Positions 5 through 16,871 of a stretch of DNA of 32,000 nucleotides are shown here, piece after piece. The stretch is from Candidatus Baldrarchaeum yapensis (GTDB lineage: Archaea; Asgardarchaeota; Baldrarchaeia; Baldrarchaeales; Baldrarchaeaceae). The stretch lies in NCBI GenBank assembly GCA_016840465.1, contig JAEOSH010000016.1, forward strand, positions 8,926 to 40,925. The letters are read 5' to 3'. The translations under genes and the position numbers were made by a program. The notes beneath the pieces were generated by a model that searched no databases, had not been told where the DNA came from, and was given only the letters and a program-made list of their open reading frames with translations. Numbering within the stretch: position 1 is the first letter of the stretch; each line of letters opens with the position of its first letter.

Positions 5-994
5 ATGGACGAGGAAGTGATATTCGGCGTTGGAGCGCTTGTTTTTGGAATACTTATGGTACTTCATAGGTTTTTGATGGGGTTTACGTGGTTTCTTATA
101 ATATTTGCGCTAATGGGAGTTTTTGCGTCGGTATTTCTGGTAAATCTCGTGAAATTTCTGCCGAGGAACTTTCCTCAAGGAAAGGTAAGAGAGTTTGGTA
201 TTTGCGGGTGCATCTTCCTAGCGTATAATACGGGATCAGGTATAAGCGTCATCGTGAGTGTACCGCTCAGCGTCAGAATTGGAGGATGGCGTGGCATTTT
301 CCTCGTATACGGGTTGATTTCTATATTCTTCTCGATCCTATTCTTTGTGATGAACAGAATATTTGCACATTTGTATGGTCCGAGAATGACGAGAAAGGAG
401 GCCGATGGAAAAGGAAAGATAGAACTTGCATTCATAAGGTTGCTTATAGTAGTGATGTTGCTGTTATTTGTGCTTTCTGGGGTCTGGATAGGGGTTACAA
501 CGCAGCTTCCACGAGTTTTGTTGCAGTGTCAGTGGACGCTTTCAGAGGTTGGTATGATCCTAGGTGCTCTATTTTGGTCAGCCGTAGTTGGGAACCTTGT
601 TATTTTGTTCTTACAGAGAAAGTTTGTACGAAAGATACAGGCTAGTACATTCTTGGGATCTGCGGCTGCTCTGGCGATGCTACTCATGACATTACCGTCT
701 CTGCATTTTTTCATATGGCTAGGCTCGGTGATCATAGGGTTTTCATTAGGTAGTATGGAGATTCTCATTGGTTCCCTTATTCTTGAGAGATTTCCATTAG
801 ACTTTTCTGAGGTTGTACTAGGCGTTATAGTAGTGATGTTGCTAATAATGGTTTCTGTCGGAGGGGCTCTCTTTTCCATACTCTTGGGCCTAATAGGGAT
901 GGCTTCCTTAGATAGGGTATATGTATTTCCGGTCATATGTAGCATTCTTCTAATGCTATCGGTCGCGCTCATGTTTTTAATTCCGGGGGATTAG
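5..994 (+). CDS. MFS-type transporter, possibly 5'-truncated by the window edge
   Basis: Two blocks of hydrophobic helices separated by a polar loop, with 'GWRGIFLVYG' resembling the MFS helix-6 motif. The frame is open back to base 2 and 329 aa is short for MFS, so the start may lie upstream. Confidence 0.7.
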   Translation: MDEEVIFGVGALVFGILMVLHRFLMGFTWFLIIFALMGVFASVFLVNLVKFLPRNFPQGKVREFGICGCIFLAYNTGSGISVIVSVPLSVRIGGWRGIFLVYGLISIFFSILFFVMNRIFAHLYGPRMTRKEADGKGKIELAFIRLLIVVMLLLFVLSGVWIGVTTQLPRVLLQCQWTLSEVGMILGALFWSAVVGNLVILFLQRKFVRKIQASTFLGSAAALAMLLMTLPSLHFFIWLGSVIIGFSLGSMEILIGSLILERFPLDFSEVVLGVIVVMLLIMVSVGGALFSILLGLIGMASLDRVYVFPVICSILLMLSVALMFLIPGD

Positions 995-996
995 CA

Positions 997-1851
997 GTGT
1001 CACTATCGATTGTACTAATAGTAATTATCGTAATTTCCGCAGTGGTGATCGCGCACATAATTTCAACGAACCTCACATTGTATCTTTTCTACAAAAGGGC
1101 AATGAAGGTATCAAAGCGGGTAATTCCAGTAATTAACTCTGAAATTGACACAGTAATGAAGAAATCAGAAGTCTCATTATCGAAAACTGTACGACCGTTC
1201 CTAAGTGACATGATCATGCTGAGATACGAACCCTACATGATATTTTCTCGTAAATTTGATGAATCCGTGGTATTGGATGGTAAGAAATTGCATTCGATGT
1301 TTGGTGCGCCCATCCTCAACAAGGATGGAAAAAGTATTGGAGCGTACTTCTATTGGAAAAGGTATCTATGTTTTACGACAACTCATATACTGAGAGCGTT
1401 CATCTCCCTAGAACTGAATGGTTTCTCGGTTTATGGAGCGGCAAAAGATAAGCAGAAGTTGAATGAGGCGTTACGCGTAATAGTAACTGATGACGTGTTT
1501 GCCTGTATAGGCGAAGTTCACGTTACACGTTTTAAAGTAAGGGAGAGGATTATCACCACAAAAAAGACACTATTACGACCTGTGGCAATAGTAGATTCCA
1601 CAAATGGCCGGCGCTTCGAGATATCATACGATTTTATGAAGATTCCGGGTATAAGGGAAAGGCATATGTTCAGGCGCGCAAGGATACTTTATAATGAAAA
1701 ATTGGTGGCGGAGATGGTCCGCCATAGGGGATATACTGCATTAGTCCCGGGGAAGCACATTAATCTCATCGATAATAGGTTGTTATTAGTCGCATTAGTG
1801 CTCATGGCCGAGCATCTATGGAATCTCCGGTCATCCGGATTCCTTCTTTGA
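997..1851 (+). CDS. Membrane-anchored hypothetical protein; C-terminus resembles the LURP-one/Tubby-C/scramblase fold
   Basis: GTG start 2 nt after the MFS stop, one N-terminal TM helix, a beta-rich body, and a terminal hydrophobic helix (NRLLLVALVLMAE). Confidence 0.5.
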   Translation: MSLSIVLIVIIVISAVVIAHIISTNLTLYLFYKRAMKVSKRVIPVINSEIDTVMKKSEVSLSKTVRPFLSDMIMLRYEPYMIFSRKFDESVVLDGKKLHSMFGAPILNKDGKSIGAYFYWKRYLCFTTTHILRAFISLELNGFSVYGAAKDKQKLNEALRVIVTDDVFACIGEVHVTRFKVRERIITTKKTLLRPVAIVDSTNGRRFEISYDFMKIPGIRERHMFRRARILYNEKLVAEMVRHRGYTALVPGKHINLIDNRLLLVALVLMAEHLWNLRSSGFLL

Positions 1852-7754: not shown

Positions 7755-8459
7755 TTAGATTAGGCGGCTTATTATTGCCAAGAATACGACCGCCAGCAAT
7801 AACATCGCAATTGCGGCTATTATCAACAATATGAGTTCGCTCTCGGAGGGGTAATGAGGCATCTGCTCGGGGTGTGCTAGAAGTTCACCAGCTGTTTCTG
7901 GCGATATCACATCTCCCTTCACCGATGCACTTATTATGCTAATTATCGGTTCGGGCTCCTGCAACAGGTCGCCATAAGCAGAGGGATCCGCCGGGTCTTC
8001 TCCCGCATGCTTTCTAAGGAAATAGCGCACCCACACCTCCTCGAGCAACGCACTGGATAAAAAATACTGTCTCACCTTATCGGCGTATACTACGATATTG
8101 TCAGTCACCTGATCGTACATTATGGAGTAGGTAATGTTTCTTATCCTCACAAAGAACGGTCTGTTTTTCAGATAGTTTTTTAACGACCTCCAAAAGTCCT
8201 TGAATGCTATACGAAGGGCGTACTCGAGGTCGGTGAGATGTGATGGAACTTTTACTGGGCTTACTTCTATGAGGTCTCGGACGGTGAGGGGTTTCATGCA
8301 GAGGGGGCATGTTCCCTTTTCTTTTAACCACTGCATGATATGATTCTTATGACCCTTTACGTGACAGTACGGGCATTCTACGATGGCATCGCTTTCCTTC
8401 AACACCTTAAAACATATTATGCATCTCTCCTGCTCGCGATCCTCGGCTCCTTCGCTCAT
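7755..8459 (-). CDS. RING-variant zinc-finger protein with C-terminal transmembrane tail (putative E3 ligase)
   Basis: C-x2-C-x12-C-x2-C-x4-H-x2-H-x3-W-x6-C-P-x-C at residues 13-54; a hydrophobic C-terminal stretch of about 25 aa. Confidence 0.8.
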   Translation of the reverse strand: MSEGAEDREQERCIICFKVLKESDAIVECPYCHVKGHKNHIMQWLKEKGTCPLCMKPLTVRDLIEVSPVKVPSHLTDLEYALRIAFKDFWRSLKNYLKNRPFFVRIRNITYSIMYDQVTDNIVVYADKVRQYFLSSALLEEVWVRYFLRKHAGEDPADPSAYGDLLQEPEPIISIISASVKGDVISPETAGELLAHPEQMPHYPSESELILLIIAAIAMLLLAVVFLAIISRLI

Positions 8460-8706: not shown

Positions 8707-9924
8707 GTGTTACTATCGCGTGGAAGGCTTCGGAAAGGGGGAAGAGTGGTGCTAGGAACCAGCATCGGGCGGGAGGTCACGGAAGTACTTAATAGGTATC
8801 GCATACACCCCGACACTCTGGCATCGTGGTTTAGATTGATAAATTTAAACGATAAACCATCCATTGGAAAAACTGAGCGACGTATCATGGCAATTTTGGC
8901 CGTTGCTCCTACCTTATCGAACAGGCAAATATCAAGAATTATCGGGATAAGTGAAAGTAGTGTTGCGTATCACATGAAAAAGTTGAGGAATAAGTATGGC
9001 CTATGCGTAATGTCGCATTTTAACCCCTGTTTGGCGGGTTTAGAAAACATCCTAGTAATATTAAGAATGCCTCGTGATCGAGAGAGCAGAAGATTCCTCG
9101 GAAATGTCAATTCAAAGTTTTTGATGCTTGCGATGCGAGGGTCTCCTGACAGCGAAAAATATCAAGGCTATCTGCTTATGTATGCCGTTCCGAGGAATAT
9201 AGGGACTAAAAGATTCATGAAGGAGTTCTGTGACGTTATCGGATCATACAAAGGGGAGGTCTATGCCTTCACGATCAAGGGTGTGTTCACGGGAATCAAC
9301 TTCGCGCTTCCGTATATTAGCACGTGGAAAGTTCCGCGCAACTGCCGTAATTACGATGCTAGTGAACTGACTCATTTCCTTTCTGGGGACATTTTCTGGT
9401 ATTCCGATAATGGGCATATCAGAGATAAAATAGATCTTCTCCTTTTTCTGCTAAAATCATACGACTTCAAAATGCGAAGTTCACAACTTGTCACACTGAT
9501 GCACCGCATATTAGGCAAACGTCTATGTGATGCCGCTGTGAGGAGAAGAGTTAGGAAGTTGTCCGCAATGAACGCATGGAGACCCTTCATTTGTTTCCGG
9601 AGACTAGGGCTCGACTCTTGTGTTGTATTGAATTTAATAGGGGATTTCGAGACGGTTGCCAGCATAATTATGAGTGCTTCTTGTTGTTTTCCTCAGTACT
9701 TTGCGTACATTCACGAGAAGGGTGCAGTTTTGCTGATCAACGTCTCACGTGCACTACTGGGGGAGATCAGTAAAAGGATTATGTCATTTGTGGAGGGGTG
9801 TGATGATCACCATTTCCTTGTAAGCTACGACAATGCGTTACCCCTGCTCAGGCTAGAAGTCATTGATATGTGGAGCAACGAGGAGAGGGGATGGCAAGTC
9901 GCCAGCATTTTGCGGAACACTTAA
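8707..9924 (+). CDS. Tandem Lrp/AsnC-like winged-helix regulator (start uncertain)
   Basis: Two Lrp-like modules: ERRIMAIL..SNRQISRIIGISESSVAYHMKKL..NPCLAGL and DKIDLLL..DAAVRRRVRKL..FRRLGL, each followed by an alpha/beta region. Confidence 0.7.
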   Translation: MLLSRGRLRKGGRVVLGTSIGREVTEVLNRYRIHPDTLASWFRLINLNDKPSIGKTERRIMAILAVAPTLSNRQISRIIGISESSVAYHMKKLRNKYGLCVMSHFNPCLAGLENILVILRMPRDRESRRFLGNVNSKFLMLAMRGSPDSEKYQGYLLMYAVPRNIGTKRFMKEFCDVIGSYKGEVYAFTIKGVFTGINFALPYISTWKVPRNCRNYDASELTHFLSGDIFWYSDNGHIRDKIDLLLFLLKSYDFKMRSSQLVTLMHRILGKRLCDAAVRRRVRKLSAMNAWRPFICFRRLGLDSCVVLNLIGDFETVASIIMSASCCFPQYFAYIHEKGAVLLINVSRALLGEISKRIMSFVEGCDDHHFLVSYDNALPLLRLEVIDMWSNEERGWQVASILRNT

Positions 9925-10027: not shown

Positions 10028-10891
10028 TTGAGCCAAAAGTATCGTGGGGCCCTTGCGGACCTTTTAGGGAATACGCTCGGAAGGGACAAACGGCTTCTGA
10101 TAGCGGATGTATTTCTTCGCCATATCGAGGCAACTTGTAAGAAATGTCTTTCGAACAGAATAGTATGTGCGACAAGGCCCATTTGCGGAAAGGACAGGCC
10201 ATTTTGCTCGATTCTCGTAGAAATAAATGCTAAAGATCTCATTAGTGAGTTCTGTTACAGGTGGATGCTGGTATCAGTACGGCAGACGATTCTTGGGAAG
10301 AAAATACTTCAAGACTTGTGCGTGTACGCGAAAGACCTGCCACATAGTATTGATAGGAAGAAAAAGCGCCTTCCGGAGGGTACCTCTTTTAATAAAATTG
10401 TCGAGGATCTCGCTGAGGCTTTGCGCGCGAATCACATAAAGTTTCATGTCGAGAACAGGGACATGGTGGCCGCGATCGTCTCAGACAATTTCCTAGTATT
10501 GATAGATGGCGAAAAGGGAATTGCCCGGGTGAATCCGCGTAATTACGCGTTTTCGAAAAAGGAAGAAATAGAGGCAGTTTTGAAGGGAATGTCCGAGATA
10601 GAGGGAGTTAAACTTGATATTCGAGAGGAGTTCGAGGGTCTTTTGATATTAGAATTTGAACTTTCCAAGATCTCGCCACATCGCGCCGATGAAATAAAAG
10701 ATTTACATGTGCCGCCCGAACTTGAAAAGTTCTGCCACCACATCGGGGTTACACGCTCAGATAACTCCGTGAAGGTGATAATAGACCTGCTGTTGAATCC
10801 CTTTCCGTCCATAACGGCTGGTGAGTTGATGAAGGTTTTTGATGTGATAAAGAAGCTGAGGACGGTGTTTTCTGCTGAGGAGAGGAGGTAG
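10028..10891 (+). CDS. Hypothetical protein with an N-terminal Cys cluster; first gene of a 4-gene operon
   Basis: TTG start after a GGAGGA SD; CKKCLSNRIVCATRPICGKDRPFC ... FCY; 5-nt gap to the next gene. Confidence 0.7.
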   Translation: MSQKYRGALADLLGNTLGRDKRLLIADVFLRHIEATCKKCLSNRIVCATRPICGKDRPFCSILVEINAKDLISEFCYRWMLVSVRQTILGKKILQDLCVYAKDLPHSIDRKKKRLPEGTSFNKIVEDLAEALRANHIKFHVENRDMVAAIVSDNFLVLIDGEKGIARVNPRNYAFSKKEEIEAVLKGMSEIEGVKLDIREEFEGLLILEFELSKISPHRADEIKDLHVPPELEKFCHHIGVTRSDNSVKVIIDLLLNPFPSITAGELMKVFDVIKKLRTVFSAEERR

Positions 10892-10896
10892 AGGAA

Positions 10897-13800
10897 TTGA
10901 AGGATGAGAAACCAACTTTAACACTCGTGCGGCAACTAGGAATGAGTGATAGAGAGGCTACCATTTACGAGGTTTTACTCAGATCGGGTGTGCTGACATC
11001 AGGTGAGATTTCCGCATTAACAGGTTTTCCGCTGGACGATGTTGAACGGACATTGGCTTCATTAGCGAAGAAAAATGTGGTTTTGAAGGTTCCAGGGATC
11101 ATTGACCGTTACGTGGCGATGCCTCCATTTATGCTCCTTGGCGAGACTTTGAGTACATGTAGGGAGGAGATTTTGAAGGCATATAAGCAGTTTTCTGACG
11201 TCATAAAGCGCATAGAGGGAGAAATAACGAAATTAGCCAAAGATTTCAGGGAAAATTCGAAGAAAATACTGGAGGATGGTGTTAAAACTGTTAGTGAGAG
11301 GATTCCCGAGTTAATGAAGGACTTAGAGGAAATCTTATCTGAGAATCTCGAAAAGATCTCAAAGGACTTGGAAGAAGTTGAGAATAAGATAACCAACGTC
11401 ATAGAGAGAGCCATAAAAGGCATATCGTCGGTTGTGAAGGAGGCTAGAAGTAGCGCGGAGCGAAGCATTTCGAACGGAGAAAGAGCTTTAGTGGGAGTAC
11501 TAGAAAGGACATTAGAGGAGGTAAATTCGACGATTGAGGAAAAGAGTGCGGAGCACGCCTCCGCCGGTCAGGAAGTTCTGGACGGTTTCCATGTGGAGGT
11601 CGAGAGGATAACGGGTGATGTCAGTAAGCAACTTGAGGCCCTCAAAAGCAACCTCATTGAGAGGGTTTCGGGAATTCGATCCGACTTCTCAGAGACTTTT
11701 AAGTCCATGCTCGAGCGCTTTGAACAAATTTCTGCAGAGTTCACAGAGGTTTTGGAGGGATTAATGACCGGCATCGAGAGGGACGTACCGGGATCGCTTG
11801 GAAAGGTTCTCGAATTGCACCGAGACGTATTAGCAAAGACTAAGGAGAATATCAGTACTACCCTGTCAGAGGTCTTATCGCGTGTCCAGAGCGGAATTGC
11901 GTCCATGAAACGTGATATAACTACTTTTCTTACGGAGACCACAATGACTGAAGAGCAACAGCTCGGAGACCTTGAGAAGATGATCGATAACTTGCTCAAG
12001 GAGTTGCGAGAGACGTTGGATAACGCCTTTAATACAATTTCCAGTACAGTTGCCGGTGCAACAAAGCACGCGAAGACAATGATAGAGCAAAACGCGAGAA
12101 GCCTAGTCGTTAAGGTCGCGCAAGTTGCCAGATCGTTCATAAATGCCTATTACACACACGCTGTGAGGTTCCGAGACTCTGTGCTGAGCGCCATTTCAGA
12201 CGAGTTTGATGCTCTAAAAGTGGAGTTTGACGGATTAAGGAGGAATCTCACGGAGAAAATAACGGATATTCTTGAAACCTACAAGAGCGGCTCTAATACT
12301 GTGATCAGAGAGATAGAAGGATGGGCCAGCACCACATTTTCGGATATAAGTGCAAATATGGAGAAATTCAGGTCAGATATCATTAAGATTATAAAGCAGA
12401 CGAGAGATGCCGTTAATAAGAGAATTTCATCGGTTGCGATTGATAAAGATGTTTTCGGTGATCTCAATCAGGGACTGGCGAGGATTTCGGATCTTGCAAA
12501 AAGAGCGCTTACTGGCATCATTAGTAATCTTGAGACCCATATCAACAGGCTCACTGATGTGTTGCACAGTTATATCTCCTCTCAAATTTCAAGCCTGCGA
12601 GCAAGAATTGAGGCAGCCATGCATGAGGTGGAGGGGGCATCGGATCCCGTTAAATTTATGAGCGAAACTCTTGCGGAAATTGAGGAAATAATACGTACGA
12701 TGGATGAGGGACTGAAGCAGAAGGTGAGTTTCGAGTTATCGAGGATGCGTCAGTCCGTTGACAGACTTTCATTAACCCTAGAGAGCGATGTTGACACCTG
12801 GCAGAGGGATTTGGAACAACTTGTCGAGGACATTATGGGACAGATAAACTCGATGCTGAACTTTTCGGTAGATGTCGTGACTCGCACAATGGAAACTGCC
12901 GAGAGGAGAATTTCTTCATCTATGGAAGGTTTACAAAAACTCGTGAGCAGGTTAATAGAACACACGAAGAAGCAGATAACATCCATAGTCAGTAGCGAAA
13001 TCAGGGGGATTGAAAGAGAGACTGAAGCCTTCATTAACGGGCTGAAGGATACTTTTTCAAAATTCATCGAAAGTATTTCGATGCTCGGTGGAAGAATTGG
13101 CGAGAAGATAAAGTCGGAACTTGAGTTTCTGAAGAGAATGGAGGAGATGGGCAAAAAGTTGGATGATGCGATAATGGAGGTGTTTTCAGAGTATCAGAGT
13201 TCAATGGTCAAGGTCTTCGACGAGAGCGAGAAGGCAATAGAGTTGGCATTAGACAGCCTCAGGGAGTTAGACGAGGAAATAATAAGCGTCAGGAAGAGTT
13301 TTGAGAAGTCTTTCAAGTCGTTCATCGATGATGTGAAGCGCAGGATCGACGGCGCTGTAAAAGCCCTAGAGGGATGCTTTGATGACGTTAGTAAAAGCAT
13401 AGAGGATGCCATTCAGGAGGTGATGAAGATAGTTTCGCAAAATACCGACAGTTTAGAGAGGAGGGTCGATGGATTATTCACCAGTGCAAGAAAAGAGATT
13501 ATAGATAGGGCGAAGGAGAGGATAAGCAAATGTCACGATAGGATAATCAAAGTTGGTAGGCTGTACGCGGAAGAATTGAAAACCGAGTCCTCCGCTATGA
13601 ACTCGCTCCTCTCTGATATGCAGAACTCCCTTGATGTCTTAATATCGACTGGTACTAAGAATATTCACACTACGATGACCTCGATAGAGGAAAAGGTTAG
13701 AAAGATGATGAGTGAACACACTGTAAAGGTAAAGAGCGCTCTTGATGACGTTAAAAAGAAGTTAAATGAAAGTATAAACAACCTCGTTGCCAGCAGTAAA

Positions 13801-14613
13801 GATCTGCTGTCTAATATGAGTAAGGAAATAGGATCGACGCTAGACAACGTGAAAAAGAAGCATGAGGAGCTAGGGACATCCATCGGGGCGGAAACGACCT
13901 CTACATTATCGAAAGTTTCGCCTCGTGTGTCTTCCCTCCTCGAGGAGTTTCGAAGAAAAGTAGAAGGAGATTTGATGTCGGTTGCAAACGAAATATCTCT
14001 GAAGGCGAAGGCCCTTTCGCTGGAACTCGATGGCGCGGCATCGCAGATAATAGAGGGGGTTTCACGCGGATTGAAGCTTGCTCGCGTGGATGAACATATA
14101 AATGCTCTTGAGGATGAGATGAGAGATGCAGAAAACCTTATAAAGAGGCTACTGGAGGTTTCCGTGAGCATTGGACCATATCTTGCGTCTAAAACGTGGT
14201 ATTGCATCGGAGTAAATGCCATAATTGCACGTATCAGAGACATAATATCGAGAGCGGAGGAGAAGCTTGCAGTAATGGCTCCACGGTTTTCTATGCTTGC
14301 AGATCTTGTGGATCCGCTATTGGAGGCCGGGCAGAGATGTAGAATTTTCGTGATAGCGGAAGTAAGCGATGATGATGACCTGAAGGTGGCGGGCGAACTT
14401 TCAAGATCTGGGAACATACGAGTGAAAAGGGCGGCAACGGGCTCCTATTACTGTGTCCTAAGGGACGACAAAGAGGTTTTAGTGGCCCCGATGGAAGACG
14501 AGGATCGTGAGGCCATGGCTTTCACATCGCAACTGGATGGTTATGTATCGCTGATAAAGGAGATCTTTAACTTCTTTATGAGAAAGAGCACTAGGGTGAT
14601 GCAGAAAAAGTGA
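10897..14613 (+). CDS. Giant TrmB-like protein: N-terminal HTH, about 1000-aa 11-residue-repeat helical rod, C-terminal TrmB effector-like domain
   Basis: Residues 1-77 match the TrmB HTH pattern (LGMSDREATIYEVLL..TSGEIS..YVAMPP). Residues 1099-1238 match the TrmB PLD-like domain (G..AI..RI.DIISRAEE..RDDKEVL). The middle is Pro-poor with hydrophobic residues at positions 1, 4/5 and 8 of an 11-mer. Confidence 0.8.
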   Translation: MKDEKPTLTLVRQLGMSDREATIYEVLLRSGVLTSGEISALTGFPLDDVERTLASLAKKNVVLKVPGIIDRYVAMPPFMLLGETLSTCREEILKAYKQFSDVIKRIEGEITKLAKDFRENSKKILEDGVKTVSERIPELMKDLEEILSENLEKISKDLEEVENKITNVIERAIKGISSVVKEARSSAERSISNGERALVGVLERTLEEVNSTIEEKSAEHASAGQEVLDGFHVEVERITGDVSKQLEALKSNLIERVSGIRSDFSETFKSMLERFEQISAEFTEVLEGLMTGIERDVPGSLGKVLELHRDVLAKTKENISTTLSEVLSRVQSGIASMKRDITTFLTETTMTEEQQLGDLEKMIDNLLKELRETLDNAFNTISSTVAGATKHAKTMIEQNARSLVVKVAQVARSFINAYYTHAVRFRDSVLSAISDEFDALKVEFDGLRRNLTEKITDILETYKSGSNTVIREIEGWASTTFSDISANMEKFRSDIIKIIKQTRDAVNKRISSVAIDKDVFGDLNQGLARISDLAKRALTGIISNLETHINRLTDVLHSYISSQISSLRARIEAAMHEVEGASDPVKFMSETLAEIEEIIRTMDEGLKQKVSFELSRMRQSVDRLSLTLESDVDTWQRDLEQLVEDIMGQINSMLNFSVDVVTRTMETAERRISSSMEGLQKLVSRLIEHTKKQITSIVSSEIRGIERETEAFINGLKDTFSKFIESISMLGGRIGEKIKSELEFLKRMEEMGKKLDDAIMEVFSEYQSSMVKVFDESEKAIELALDSLRELDEEIISVRKSFEKSFKSFIDDVKRRIDGAVKALEGCFDDVSKSIEDAIQEVMKIVSQNTDSLERRVDGLFTSARKEIIDRAKERISKCHDRIIKVGRLYAEELKTESSAMNSLLSDMQNSLDVLISTGTKNIHTTMTSIEEKVRKMMSEHTVKVKSALDDVKKKLNESINNLVASSKDLLSNMSKEIGSTLDNVKKKHEELGTSIGAETTSTLSKVSPRVSSLLEEFRRKVEGDLMSVANEISLKAKALSLELDGAASQIIEGVSRGLKLARVDEHINALEDEMRDAENLIKRLLEVSVSIGPYLASKTWYCIGVNAIIARIRDIISRAEEKLAVMAPRFSMLADLVDPLLEAGQRCRIFVIAEVSDDDDLKVAGELSRSGNIRVKRAATGSYYCVLRDDKEVLVAPMEDEDREAMAFTSQLDGYVSLIKEIFNFFMRKSTRVMQKK

Positions 14614-14619
14614 TGGGCC

Positions 14620-15918
14620 ATGGCGGATGTAGCAGTATTACTGGCATATATGATACTACTGACCCTTGTTTACGGCGCGATAGTCAGCGAAGTACTTCCG
14701 AAAAGCGTAGCCGCTCTCCTAGGGGGAATTGCGGCAATAATAATCGGCAGGGTTGCGGGAATATTTGATGTTAGCGAGATAGTGAAATTCATAGACATGA
14801 AGGTGCTTCTCATAATAATCGGCATAATGATGTTTGTTGAAGTTGCTAGACGAAGTGGTATGTTTCAATTCATCGCACTATATATTATGAAGTTCGTGGG
14901 CTACAAGCCGAGAAGGGTGCTCATAATTCTATGTGTGCTGTCGGCAATGCTGTCAGCATTTATAGGGAACATAACGGCGATGATTATAATCATATCTGTC
15001 ACGACATTAACCCTGATACCACTGGGGGCAGACCCGATACCATTTCTCATTGCGATTTCCATAGTACTCGATCTTGGGGGCACAATAACTCTTATCGGGA
15101 GTCCTGTATCGATACTGATAGGATACTCGGCCAACTTCTCGTACATAGACTTTCTGATCTATTCGGCTCCCCTTGCGATGATACTTGTTTTGGTGCATAT
15201 TCTATTTTTCCTGACGGTATTCAAGAAAACGATTCCACCTAGGTTTGATGTTGATCCGGAGATACTCGCTGAGTTGGATCCATGGATGGTAATAACAGAT
15301 AGGGATCTCTTTTACAGATCGATTGCCATCTTCATCCTCACGGTAGTTCTCTTCATGACGTACGAGTTTCTCGAGTTATCTGCCGAGTTTGTTGCCCTAA
15401 CGGGTGGTATATTGATGCTGTTCCTTGGATTGCGTGCAAGTGATCCCAAAGAGGTTTTTAAAGGAATTGAGTGGGAAGTAATCTTCTTTCTGCTGGGACT
15501 CTTTCTGCTGATGGGTGCGATTGAGAAATCAGGGCTACTAGAAGTGATTGCTGAGCAGGTAGTCCACCTCACGGGCGAGAACCTTCTCCTTACAATAATC
15601 TTAATAATGGGAGTGGCGTGTGTCCTTTCAGCGATGATCGATAACATACCAGTAACACTGATGATGATACCAATCATAAAAACAATCGTCACCATGAGTG
15701 GTCTCCCAGCGACCCCTCTCTGGTGGGCACTCTTGTACGGCGTAATACTGGGTGGGAACCTGACGCCTATCGCCTCTCCCACAAAGATAATTGCTCTTAC
15801 TGTACTCGAGAGAGAGGGATACAAAATTTCGTTTAAGGAGTTCATGAGGTATAGCATTCCGACTGTGCTCCTTTCCATGGCTGTAGCGGTTCCGTACCTC
15901 ATGAAATTAGCGGGGTGA
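14620..15918 (+). CDS. ArsB/NhaD (SLC13/P-protein-like) ion transporter superfamily permease
   Basis: About 11-12 hydrophobic segments; LSAFIGNIT, LGGTITLIG, LSAMIDNIPVT, LGGNLT, and the C-terminal ISFKEF motif. Confidence 0.88.
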   Translation: MADVAVLLAYMILLTLVYGAIVSEVLPKSVAALLGGIAAIIIGRVAGIFDVSEIVKFIDMKVLLIIIGIMMFVEVARRSGMFQFIALYIMKFVGYKPRRVLIILCVLSAMLSAFIGNITAMIIIISVTTLTLIPLGADPIPFLIAISIVLDLGGTITLIGSPVSILIGYSANFSYIDFLIYSAPLAMILVLVHILFFLTVFKKTIPPRFDVDPEILAELDPWMVITDRDLFYRSIAIFILTVVLFMTYEFLELSAEFVALTGGILMLFLGLRASDPKEVFKGIEWEVIFFLLGLFLLMGAIEKSGLLEVIAEQVVHLTGENLLLTIILIMGVACVLSAMIDNIPVTLMMIPIIKTIVTMSGLPATPLWWALLYGVILGGNLTPIASPTKIIALTVLEREGYKISFKEFMRYSIPTVLLSMAVAVPYLMKLAG

Positions 15919-16871
15919 TCTTATTGAGTGAGAAAAAGGCTAAGGCCAGAGAAGTGGAAGGACTGATGGAAAAAATAATGGAAGAAGTCAGTAGGATGAT
16001 GCCGGTCGTTGAGCCCCTAAAGCTAGCATTCGAGGTTCCATCCATCCAACACGTGGTTGCGCTTACGGGTGGTGAAAACCTCCACCCTAACACGGCAACC
16101 TTTGCTAAGGAGATTGCAAAGCGTCTGAATGCGGAAATCACAGTATTATTTCCCATGCGTGAGATCACTCCTGATGATATCTTTAATGAACGTGCCGAGG
16201 AGGTTGCAAAGTATGCTGATGTGCTAAGAGAAGAAGGGATAAGAGTGAGGGAGTCTACCTGTTTTAAATATTCGGAATTAAAGGAGGTAGTTCAAGAGGT
16301 TAATACCAGAAAGGCCGATATGGTCCTTGTCCCCAAATGTTTGGGGGAGGAGGAAGTTAAGGAGAGATGCCACATAAGCGATATCGTTCAGGTTCTGACA
16401 ACCGAGTTGAACGTCCCGCTCTTCATAATAAGTGAGGAGGATATACTGCCCGTATCAATGCTTGATAATCTGCTCGTTCCAGTCAGACGTACTGACAGAA
16501 AGTTCGGAAACGTCGCGTTGAGCGCCGCACTTGCATCTAAGAAGGGTACTATTGAGATTTTCTCCGTCATAACTGAAGATGAAGTCGAGTCAGGGATGGA
16601 GAGTAGCGATAAGCAACGGAATCAGGTTATTAAATCGTTAAGAGAAAGAAGGGAGGCGTTCGTCACTTCTGTGGAAAAGGCTCTAGCAAAGTTCGTTTCC
16701 CCACAACGGATAAAGATGAGTGTGACTGTGGGTCATCTGGATGAGAAGATCATTGAACGCGCGGAGGAGACCAGGAGCGTGATCGTTGTCAATAAAGTGG
16801 GGAAAGTCGGAATAACCGGAATTTTAGAGGCATTAATGAGGGACGCAAAAGCTCTTATAATAGTGCCCTAA
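15915..16871 (+). CDS. Tandem universal-stress-protein (USP) domain protein
   Basis: Two USP-like halves (HVVALT..AKEIAKRLNAEITVL..ADMVLV..VPLFII; NLLVPV..ALIIVP); 4-nt overlap with the permease stop. Confidence 0.7.
   Translation: MILLSEKKAKAREVEGLMEKIMEEVSRMMPVVEPLKLAFEVPSIQHVVALTGGENLHPNTATFAKEIAKRLNAEITVLFPMREITPDDIFNERAEEVAKYADVLREEGIRVRESTCFKYSELKEVVQEVNTRKADMVLVPKCLGEEEVKERCHISDIVQVLTTELNVPLFIISEEDILPVSMLDNLLVPVRRTDRKFGNVALSAALASKKGTIEIFSVITEDEVESGMESSDKQRNQVIKSLRERREAFVTSVEKALAKFVSPQRIKMSVTVGHLDEKIIERAEETRSVIVVNKVGKVGITGILEALMRDAKALIIVP

Follow-up and report, generated by a model that had tools for sequence, protein, structure and literature searches.

What does a TrmB-type regulator become when some 1,000 residues of helix are set between its two domains? 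The question is raised by a 32,000-nucleotide (nt) stretch of the Candidatus Baldrarchaeum yapensis genome (contig JAEOSH010000016.1, positions 8,926 to 40,925; hereafter the window), in which an open reading frame (ORF) of 1238 amino acids (aa) encodes a TrmB-type winged helix-turn-helix (wHTH), a rod of 11-residue (hendecad) repeats and a C-terminal phospholipase D (PLD)-like domain (Table 1). An original prediction, made from the DNA alone, held that the rod folds back at its midpoint and reunites the two TrmB domains. We find that local charge in one half of the rod is complementary to that in the other about this midpoint, both in this giant protein and across a family of homologs from Asgard archaea, and that the two halves probably pair antiparallel. 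Pairing within a single chain is the form that we tentatively favor.

The ends of the giant protein define its ancestry. The identical 1238-aa protein is present on the NCBI and ENA contigs of this metagenome-assembled genome, and its start codon is credible because homolog alignments begin at query residues 3-12. The N-terminal domain matches PF01978 with an E-value of 3e-10 and a score of 40.2 bits, above the 25.6-bit cut-off, and is closest in sequence to TrmBL2 and TrmB structures (TrmBL2 5bpd, E 2e-3 in a sequence match to the Protein Data Bank, PDB). When the C-terminal piece was scanned alone, approximately residues 1101-1212 matched positions 3-114 of the 233-position Regulator_TrmB profile PF11495 with 27.5 bits (cut-off 22.2); the remainder of the profile (positions 115-233) has no counterpart in the protein, which stops 26 residues past the match, such that the sugar-binding second effector subdomain is absent. 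Both end domains are confident in an AlphaFold2 (AF2) model, with a predicted local distance difference test (pLDDT) score of ~80-89; the wHTH scores 79-87 and gives wHTH fold matches at Z 11-12. VIA superposition of the C-terminal domain gives 2f5t at Z 14.0 (root-mean-square deviation, rmsd, 1.9 Å over 107 residues), TrmB 3qph at Z 13.6 and TrmBL2 5bqt at Z 12.7, followed by other PLD-fold proteins, both non-catalytic and catalytic, and Foldseek comparison of the whole model returns a TrmBL2 match at E 5e-7. D1190 and E1193 are invariant in the alignment of family C-terminal domains, and a motif check of the C-terminal domain sequence found neither an HKD motif nor any histidine. The protein follows the TrmBL2 plan of wHTH head, helix and first effector subdomain only: it has the wHTH and PLD-like subdomain of the TrmB family and lacks the short linker, the recognition tyrosine and the sugar-binding subdomain. 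A search of the whole protein for Walker motifs ([AG]xxxxGK[ST] and hhhhD[DE]) found none, as the original prediction had said.

Between these domains runs a hendecad helix of ~1015 residues (78-1092) with unusually strict periodicity. Fourier analysis of hydrophobicity yields one sharp peak at the anticipated 3.67 residues, with an 11/3 power of 793 for residues 92-509 compared to a maximum of 123 in 300 shuffles (periods 3.0-4.5), and powers in the same segment of just 8.5 at 3.5 and 17 at 3.6. The register is constant from approximately residue 72 to 510, which bears out the 38 consecutive 11-mers read earlier over residues 92-509, and hydrophobic residues, mostly large aliphatics, occupy hendecad positions 1, 4, 5, 8 and partly 11 (a, d, e, h, k). 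As also foreseen, the pattern continues through the second half to residue 1092, with phase shifts along the rod near 509-520, 580, 746, 766-797, 900 and 1068; the predicted span, the midpoint at residue 585 and the position of the G-A-S-D-P (GASDP) break likewise hold. GASDP carries a phase shift of -1.27 residues and a three-residue AF2 break at 581-583, and would act as a turn or hinge. Two further AF2 breaks, at 514-520 and 651-657, are by their coordinates symmetric about residue ~585 and may delimit a distal tip segment of ~65 residues per strand, and a break at 295-300 (P298) in the N-terminal arm leaves the register unaltered. The rod contains 4 prolines in 1015 residues, and cysteine only at positions 88, 827 and 879. 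No DNA-level tandem repeat is present in the ORF and self-similarity of the protein occurs only at offsets of 11 and 22; the periodicity therefore reflects structure and did not arise by recent amplification. As a continuous helix the rod has a calculated length of ~151 nm, and each half of ~75 nm.

If residue i lies against residue S-i in space, local net charge at the two positions is expected to be complementary. We correlated smoothed net charge at i and S-i, scanning the mirror point over the central half of possible positions, and compared the result to 500 hendecad-block shuffles. In the giant protein the correlation reaches its minimum (r = -0.353) at a mirror centre of 583.5, inside GASDP, a value reached by 0 of 500 shuffles. 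Charge at residue i thus anticorrelates with charge at residue 1167-i, and every quarter of the arm contributes (r = -0.37, -0.41, -0.33 and -0.23). We extended the test to 59 family representatives whose rods range from 447 to 1692 residues; their averaged z-profile is flat save for one sharp dip to between -1.6 and -1.7, which sits within ~3 residues of the geometric rod centre. The global minimum falls at the centre in 14 of the 59 proteins with a smoothing window of 7 and in 20 with a window of 11, where 1.9 are expected, although family members are related and these counts overstate independence. The proteins with a centre-located minimum have rods of 459 to 1083 residues; the mirror point lies at the midpoint whatever the rod length, and the arms therefore stay length-matched, which is the symmetry among homologs that the original prediction had proposed as a check. 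From this complementarity we infer physical contact: the two halves of the rod probably pair antiparallel with length-matched arms, much as the original prediction had placed them about residue ~582.

Two observations weigh against this interpretation. The same analysis applied to the SMC (1126-aa ORF) and Rad50 (933-aa ORF) proteins of this genome gave no dip at the hinge or CxxC hook, and the mirror-charge statistic is thus no general hairpin detector; the irregular arms of SMC and Rad50 are perhaps the reason that these controls failed. In addition, the phase shifts of the C-terminal arm at ~746, 766-797, 900 and 1068 lack mirror counterparts in the N-terminal arm, which counts against a clean pairing of two helices. 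That 1126-aa SMC-like ORF (L039, G000:C74:1000-4800) has its strong minimum elsewhere, at residue 742 (r = -0.52, z = -4.3), a long way from where a mirror point centred on the hinge would fall.

The mirror-charge signal bears directly on two accounts of the rod that involve no antiparallel contact. In one, several chains run parallel and in register as a homo-oligomeric coiled coil of ~150 nm, the wHTH domains gathered at one end and the PLD-like domains at the opposite end, resembling the 70-nm pentameric tail of ZorA. Profiles of the ZorA tail do match the rod (PADLOC, E 3e-24; NCBIfam ZorA_3, 48.8 bits, below the cut-off of 250), electron microscopy (EM) shows that tail to be an extended right-handed coiled coil (PMC11946911), and a wide hydrophobic seam would suit such an oligomer. 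However, parallel chains predict no complementarity between i and S-i, where a sharp midpoint dip is seen family-wide, and the ZorA matches are confined to the profile tails (positions 291-431 of ZorA_3, and likewise the tail only in PADLOC) and are likely driven by periodicity; we regard a parallel rod as quite improbable. The other is an amphipathic helix lying on a lipid or membrane surface in the manner of apolipoproteins or perilipins, a role that the original prediction had also entertained. An 11/3 periodicity yields a straight hydrophobic stripe, and the rod scores 114.2 bits over 5 stretches with the Pfam Apolipoprotein A1/A4/E family (cut-off 90) and 56 bits with ApoLp-III. Yet its few prolines do not make Pro-punctuated 22-mers, its core is built of large aliphatics and aromatics with no concentration of basic residues at the polar/apolar boundary, no signal peptide or transmembrane segment was noticed when the sequence was read, the mirror-charge signal implies helix-helix pairing, and the flanking domains come from a DNA-binding family. 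Lipid binding is accordingly disfavored and, to us, very improbable. We set aside the ZorA (PADLOC and NCBIfam), apolipoprotein, ApoLp-III and Baculo_PEP_C matches as shared periodicity and not homology.

How the halves would come together is a narrower question. In the account that we favor, the giant protein would be of TrmBL2 type, its antiparallel pairing helix lengthened to ~1015 residues of hendecad (11/3) helix, with an N-terminal half (78-580) and a C-terminal half (585-1092) that would pair antiparallel in a single fixed register about 583.5 and so bring the winged helix and PLD-like domain together at the rod end. A Gly C-cap followed by a Ser/Asp-Pro N-cap in GASDP would cut the helix at the mirror point, and for this reason we take an intramolecular fold-back arm as the likeliest form. 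Several family members (P0018, P0048 and P0020) have long Pro/Gly loops exactly at the centre, which favor intramolecular closure, as do the mirrored AF2 breaks at 514-520 and 651-657. Such an arm would probably associate further into a four-helix bundle, because the seam is wide and TrmB-family proteins form dimers or tetramers.

Pairing in trans would satisfy the charge data equally in one respect: two fully overlapping antiparallel chains place the mirror centre at the midpoint automatically, at any rod length. GASDP would then be the central hinge of a ~150-nm rod in which each end joins the wHTH of one chain to the PLD-like domain of the other, forming a two-ended bridge similar to alpha-actinin; the 75-nm hairpin and the 150-nm antiparallel dimer are domain-swapped versions of each other. 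The dimerization helices of TrmB itself cross antiparallel between chains (F81/I91' and F84/L88'; PMC4158304), and several features of the homologs point the same way. At the centre of the 59 homologs a Gly/Pro or G/P/N/D/S turn signature is at background, and no rod column in the ~1300-aa subfamily reaches 50% Gly/Pro. In 59% of representatives the hendecad phase runs through the centre without interruption (27% expected). A register break within 0.03 of the centre occurs in 35% of homologs compared to 20% for random centres, an excess too modest to be decisive. P0007 from Freyarchaeota has a rod of 1084 residues with no proline, no register break and a 3.666-residue power of 1519. With no turn signature in most homologs and P0007 unbroken, the family as a whole does not keep a hairpin turn, and two chains could pair in the same way. 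The fold-back arm as first proposed therefore gains support for its antiparallel, length-matched halves and fails in the conservation of its GASDP turn. Against a trans dimer stand the central Pro/Gly loops of P0018, P0048 and P0020, the strong stop/start motif of the giant protein at no more than 2 residues from the mirror centre (a ~2% coincidence given 4 prolines in 1015 residues), and the AF2 monomer model, which folds back, though a monomer model cannot show a dimer. We judge the trans dimer rather unlikely. An intramolecular fold-back arm of ~75 nm, serving as a fixed-length scaffold or bridge together with the upstream partner described below, remains our preferred whole reading, held tentatively and at a little less than an even chance.

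The AF2 model of the giant protein is itself weak, with a mean pLDDT of 62.7 that drops below 50 around the centre and a predicted template modeling score (pTM) of 0.34. It has a helix break where the original prediction placed the turn, near 582, and looks like a further-folded bundle. VIA alignments to 8s86, spanning both termini (21..1200), and to 7rtu, spanning four rod segments (201..922, 297 aligned), indicate that the modeled chain folds back as a hairpin and then a second time, giving a four-helix bundle. Taken literally, the model would describe a compact zigzag of ~200-residue helices (78-294, 301-513, 658-848 and 856-1055) in a ~30-nm four-helix bundle with a small central hairpin, and four-helix proteins that VIA aligns over ~300 residues (spanning 201..922 and 175..845 of the model) agree with that shape. 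The rmsd of these alignments is 10-12 Å, homologs without proline or register break cannot share such a fold, and we distrust the extra fold because the register passes unaltered through its proposed turn at 295-300. Monomer predictors, moreover, tend to collapse amphipathic helices whose real pairing is between chains. We consider the compact bundle improbable. Foldseek matches of the model to SMC, MukB and JetC chains have an rmsd of 75-114 Å and are no structural match.

We used an exhaustive profile-free search to place the giant protein among its relatives, which gave 260 clusters at E <1e-3. Both end domains are present in 96 of the best 150 of these clusters, with total lengths of 323 to 1907 residues and rods of ~94 to ~1690, and nearly all have a larger amplitude at 11/3 than at 3.5. 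Every member with an organism name is Asgard, according to the record names of ~20 clusters, with Frey-, Sigyn-, Loki-, Heimdall-, Hod-, Hel-, Njord- and Atabeyarchaeia represented; databases annotate these proteins only as 'helix-turn-helix domain-containing' or 'hypothetical'. At least one match was found in 40 of 41 related genomes searched, often as several paralogs of unlike length. Many Asgard genomes have three to seven matches with differing rod length, and in one (G010, contig C1, 205938-208776, minus strand) giant TrmB-like ORFs of 1816 and 775 aa lie side by side. The only other TrmB-like match in the B. yapensis genome is a 280-aa ORF of ordinary TrmBL2-like size (L002, G000:C52:50575-50961, minus strand).

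Rod length is fixed within subfamilies of these proteins. Two conserved anchors, the proline that ends the wing and the tryptophan at the start of the C-terminal domain, lie 1091-1093 residues apart in one set of eleven clusters, 764 in a set of four and 1552-1554 in a set of five. The eleven-cluster subfamily has a mean identity of ~20%, and a rod length held to 1 residue among relatives this divergent implies selection on physical length, as in a ruler, spacer or bridge. Family-wide, the anchor distance (P77-W1101 in the giant protein) shows no mod-11 preference. Mapping of gains and losses in rod length with phmmer was uninformative, with promiscuous in-rod alignments that extend from either anchor. 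One subfamily (homologs P0114, P0137 and P0023) has a conserved, roughly palindromic RG-S/A-A-x-K-A-L-F-x-G-x-H-K motif exactly at the mirror centre, accompanied by a register shift of approximately -1.2 residues, and this motif may be a dedicated turn or dyad contact. No paper describing a giant TrmB-like family was found in the literature searched, and a review of the TrmB family includes no member longer than 360 residues (PMC4158304); the family appears to be undescribed in the searchable literature.

A second conserved component is encoded directly 5' of the giant ORF. The stop codon of this partner gene, P0153, at 10889-10891 is separated from the giant-ORF TTG by 5 nt, and this gap, together with a Shine-Dalgarno-like GGAGG inside the end of the partner gene, is consistent with co-transcription and coupled translation. 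In at least 14 related genomes of several families, and across Asgard lineages, a giant TrmB-like ORF likewise has a partner homolog as its immediate upstream neighbor. No Pfam or NCBIfam family was found for the partner. In its N-terminal helical domain, alignment reveals invariant Cys37, Cys40, Cys53, Cys76, Pro51 and Arg57, with Cys47 nearly invariant, and the CxxC-x6-C-x5-C cluster suggests a metal site. The AF2 model of the partner is confident (pLDDT 86.7, pTM 0.85), and VIA comparison gives 9uwz at Z 8.4 (rmsd 3.2 Å over 107 residues) and about a dozen type III secretion system (T3SS) chaperones at Z 6.2-7.7, matching the C-terminal alpha/beta domain (175-287) to a T3SS class I chaperone/YbjN-like fold. 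This assignment is only suggestive: Foldseek of the partner model against the PDB returned nothing clear (TM-score 0.24 or less), and a search of the ESM Atlas gave weak rows only, one of them a YbjN cluster.

Complex prediction places the partner at one end of the giant protein. The partner with giant-protein residues 1-200 and 1000-1238 gave an ipSAE interface score of 0.51 (runs of 0.51, 0.51 and 0.46) compared to 0.00 for the best of three controls, with contact agreement between runs of at least 51% and partner pLDDT of at least 81. In calibration, 58 of 80 solved complexes pass the mark for this score, as do 2 of 110 mismatched pairs, and values of 0.60 or under include just 7 of the 80 solved complexes and both passing mismatches. 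Replacing the C-terminal fragment of the giant protein drops the score to 0.00, and the predicted contact is therefore with that fragment, lending weak support to a model in which the partner docks at the C terminus of the giant protein. A module of two components is suggested by this conserved Cys-cluster/chaperone-fold protein, with which the giant protein would act.

The DNA-binding head is altered at the positions on which TrmB relies. Tyr50 of the TrmB recognition helix is needed for DNA recognition (PMC4158304); in the giant protein the recognition helix reads PLDDVERTL, as first reported, is non-basic and aligns Glu50 with this DNA-contacting Tyr of TrmB and TrmBL2, a column that holds E, K, Q, N, R or D across the family. 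Wing residues R71-Y72 and P76-P77 are conserved in the family. With a wHTH net charge of 0, a non-basic recognition helix and the TrmB tyrosine replaced, canonical sequence-specific DNA binding is doubtful, and the protein may contact DNA through the wing or not at all. We therefore describe the giant protein as one that would serve as a fixed-length structural spacer or bridge and not as a ligand-switched repressor. A broader proposal, which we regard as unlikely but worth stating, is that the fixed-length rods of Asgard archaea (~35-250 nm, frequently of several lengths in one genome), made by stretching the TrmB pairing helix and equipped with wHTH and PLD-like heads and metal-binding chaperone-fold partners, form an ATPase-free skeleton for nucleoid bridging or DNA-to-structure tethering; if true, the prokaryotes closest to eukaryotes would have a cytoskeletal system that organizes the chromosome. 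Asgard cell architecture and chromatin organization bear on the origin of eukaryotes, and here a known regulator family takes on a giant architecture without a described counterpart, in which ~1000 residues of near defect-free hendecad have mirror-complementary halves and a length kept within 1 residue at ~20% identity. The rod is also a natural, very long and regular right-handed or straight coiled coil that offers a test case for hairpin versus domain-swapped assembly.

Table 1. Features of the giant TrmB-like locus and its neighbors, in window coordinates
Feature	Residues	Position (nt)	Strand	Remarks
ORF with weak zf-RING_2 match		7755-8459	-	234 aa
Protein with HTH_24/AsnC-type helix-turn-helix	55-95 (helix-turn-helix)	8707-9924	+	405 aa; rest of the protein unassigned
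Partner gene P0153		10028..10891	+	287 aa; directly 5' of giant ORF
Shine-Dalgarno-like GGAGG		10884..10888	+	Inside partner-gene 3' end, 8 nt before TTG; from reading the sequence
Giant TrmB-like ORF	1-1238	10897..14613	+	1238 aa; 138.9 kDa; isoelectric point 5.27; TTG start
TrmB-type wHTH	13-77	10933..11127	+	Pfam PF01978
N-terminal arm	78-513	11128..12435	+	~40 hendecads in a single unbroken register
Helix break and register shift	514-520	12436..12456	+	AF2 break; -1.5-residue phase shift at 509
G-A-S-D-P	580-584	12634..12648	+	Helix stop/start motif at rod mirror centre
C-terminal arm	585-1092	12649..14172	+	Hendecad helix with several register shifts
AF2 helix break	651-657	12847..12867	+	Mirror partner of 514-520
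C-terminal PLD-like domain	1093-1238	14173..14610	+	Equivalent to the first TrmB effector subdomain, the one kept by TrmBL2
CitMHS/ArsB-type permease with Usp-like ORF		14620-16871	+	Usp-like ORF of 318 aa

Downstream of the giant ORF, the CitMHS/ArsB-type permease gene begins after 7 nt and is overlapped by the Usp-like ORF over 4 nt, continuing a string of genes on the same strand. These two genes are probably outside the conserved module because two homologous loci have other downstream genes.

Comparison with known systems sets the giant protein among several classes of long helical proteins. Methyl-accepting chemotaxis proteins have a fold-back cytoplasmic hairpin that dimerizes into a four-helix bundle and occur in discrete length classes in which the two arms change together, a pattern to which the giant family can be likened. 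Chemotaxis receptors differ in being membrane proteins built on heptads with a conserved CheA/CheW-binding tip, whereas the tip of the giant family is not conserved and its rod is three to ten times longer. Apolipoprotein A1/A4/E (PF01442) shares the 11/22-residue amphipathic periodicity, with a Pfam score above the gathering cut-off; unlike an apolipoprotein, the giant rod has no proline punctuation, is not secreted and is flanked on both sides by TrmB domains. Plasmid proteins of the KfrA type, for which a cytoskeleton-like role in DNA binding has been discussed, combine an N-terminal HTH head with a long tail of alpha-helical coiled coil (PMC7821693); they share the plan of a head plus a long tail, but are bacterial, much shorter and without a C-terminal PLD-like domain. 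The tail of ZorA from the Zorya system is likewise a very long right-handed or straight coiled coil whose profile hidden Markov models cross-match the rod, and its length is thought to be functionally relevant (PMC11946911). By analogy, the ZorA tail shows that hendecad sequences of this kind can build long straight rods. ZorA is a parallel pentamer on a MotA-like membrane motor (PMC11946911), in contrast to the giant protein, which has no MotA/ExbB-like motor domain and whose pairing appears to be antiparallel.

SMC, Rad50 and MukB offer a likeness in geometry only, with long matched antiparallel arms that unite N- and C-terminal globular parts, an arrangement that the giant protein may share. 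The original prediction of SMC/Rad50-like geometry without an ATPase is sustained in its second element, as there is neither a Walker A or B motif nor an SMC_N Pfam match to indicate an ABC ATPase head. GASDP occupies the apex in place of a hinge domain or CxxC zinc hook, the near-perfect hendecad contrasts with the interrupted heptads of SMC, Rad50 and MukB, and no sequence relationship with these proteins was found. The closest known proteins are TrmBL2 (PF0496/TK0471; 5bpd, 5bpi, 5bqt and 5box) and TrmB (3qph and 2f5t) of Thermococcales, with which the giant protein shares the succession of wHTH, amphipathic pairing helix and PLD-like first effector subdomain. TrmB and TrmBL1 have a sugar-binding second subdomain that TrmBL2 lacks (PMC4158304), and in this the giant protein is like TrmBL2. 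Compared to TrmB and TrmBL2, its linker helix has ~1015 residues instead of ~30, the recognition-helix tyrosine and basic residues are replaced (Glu50, Asp47 and Asp48) in a protein that is acidic overall, and it belongs to a family restricted to Asgard archaea, by its named records, with a dedicated partner gene.

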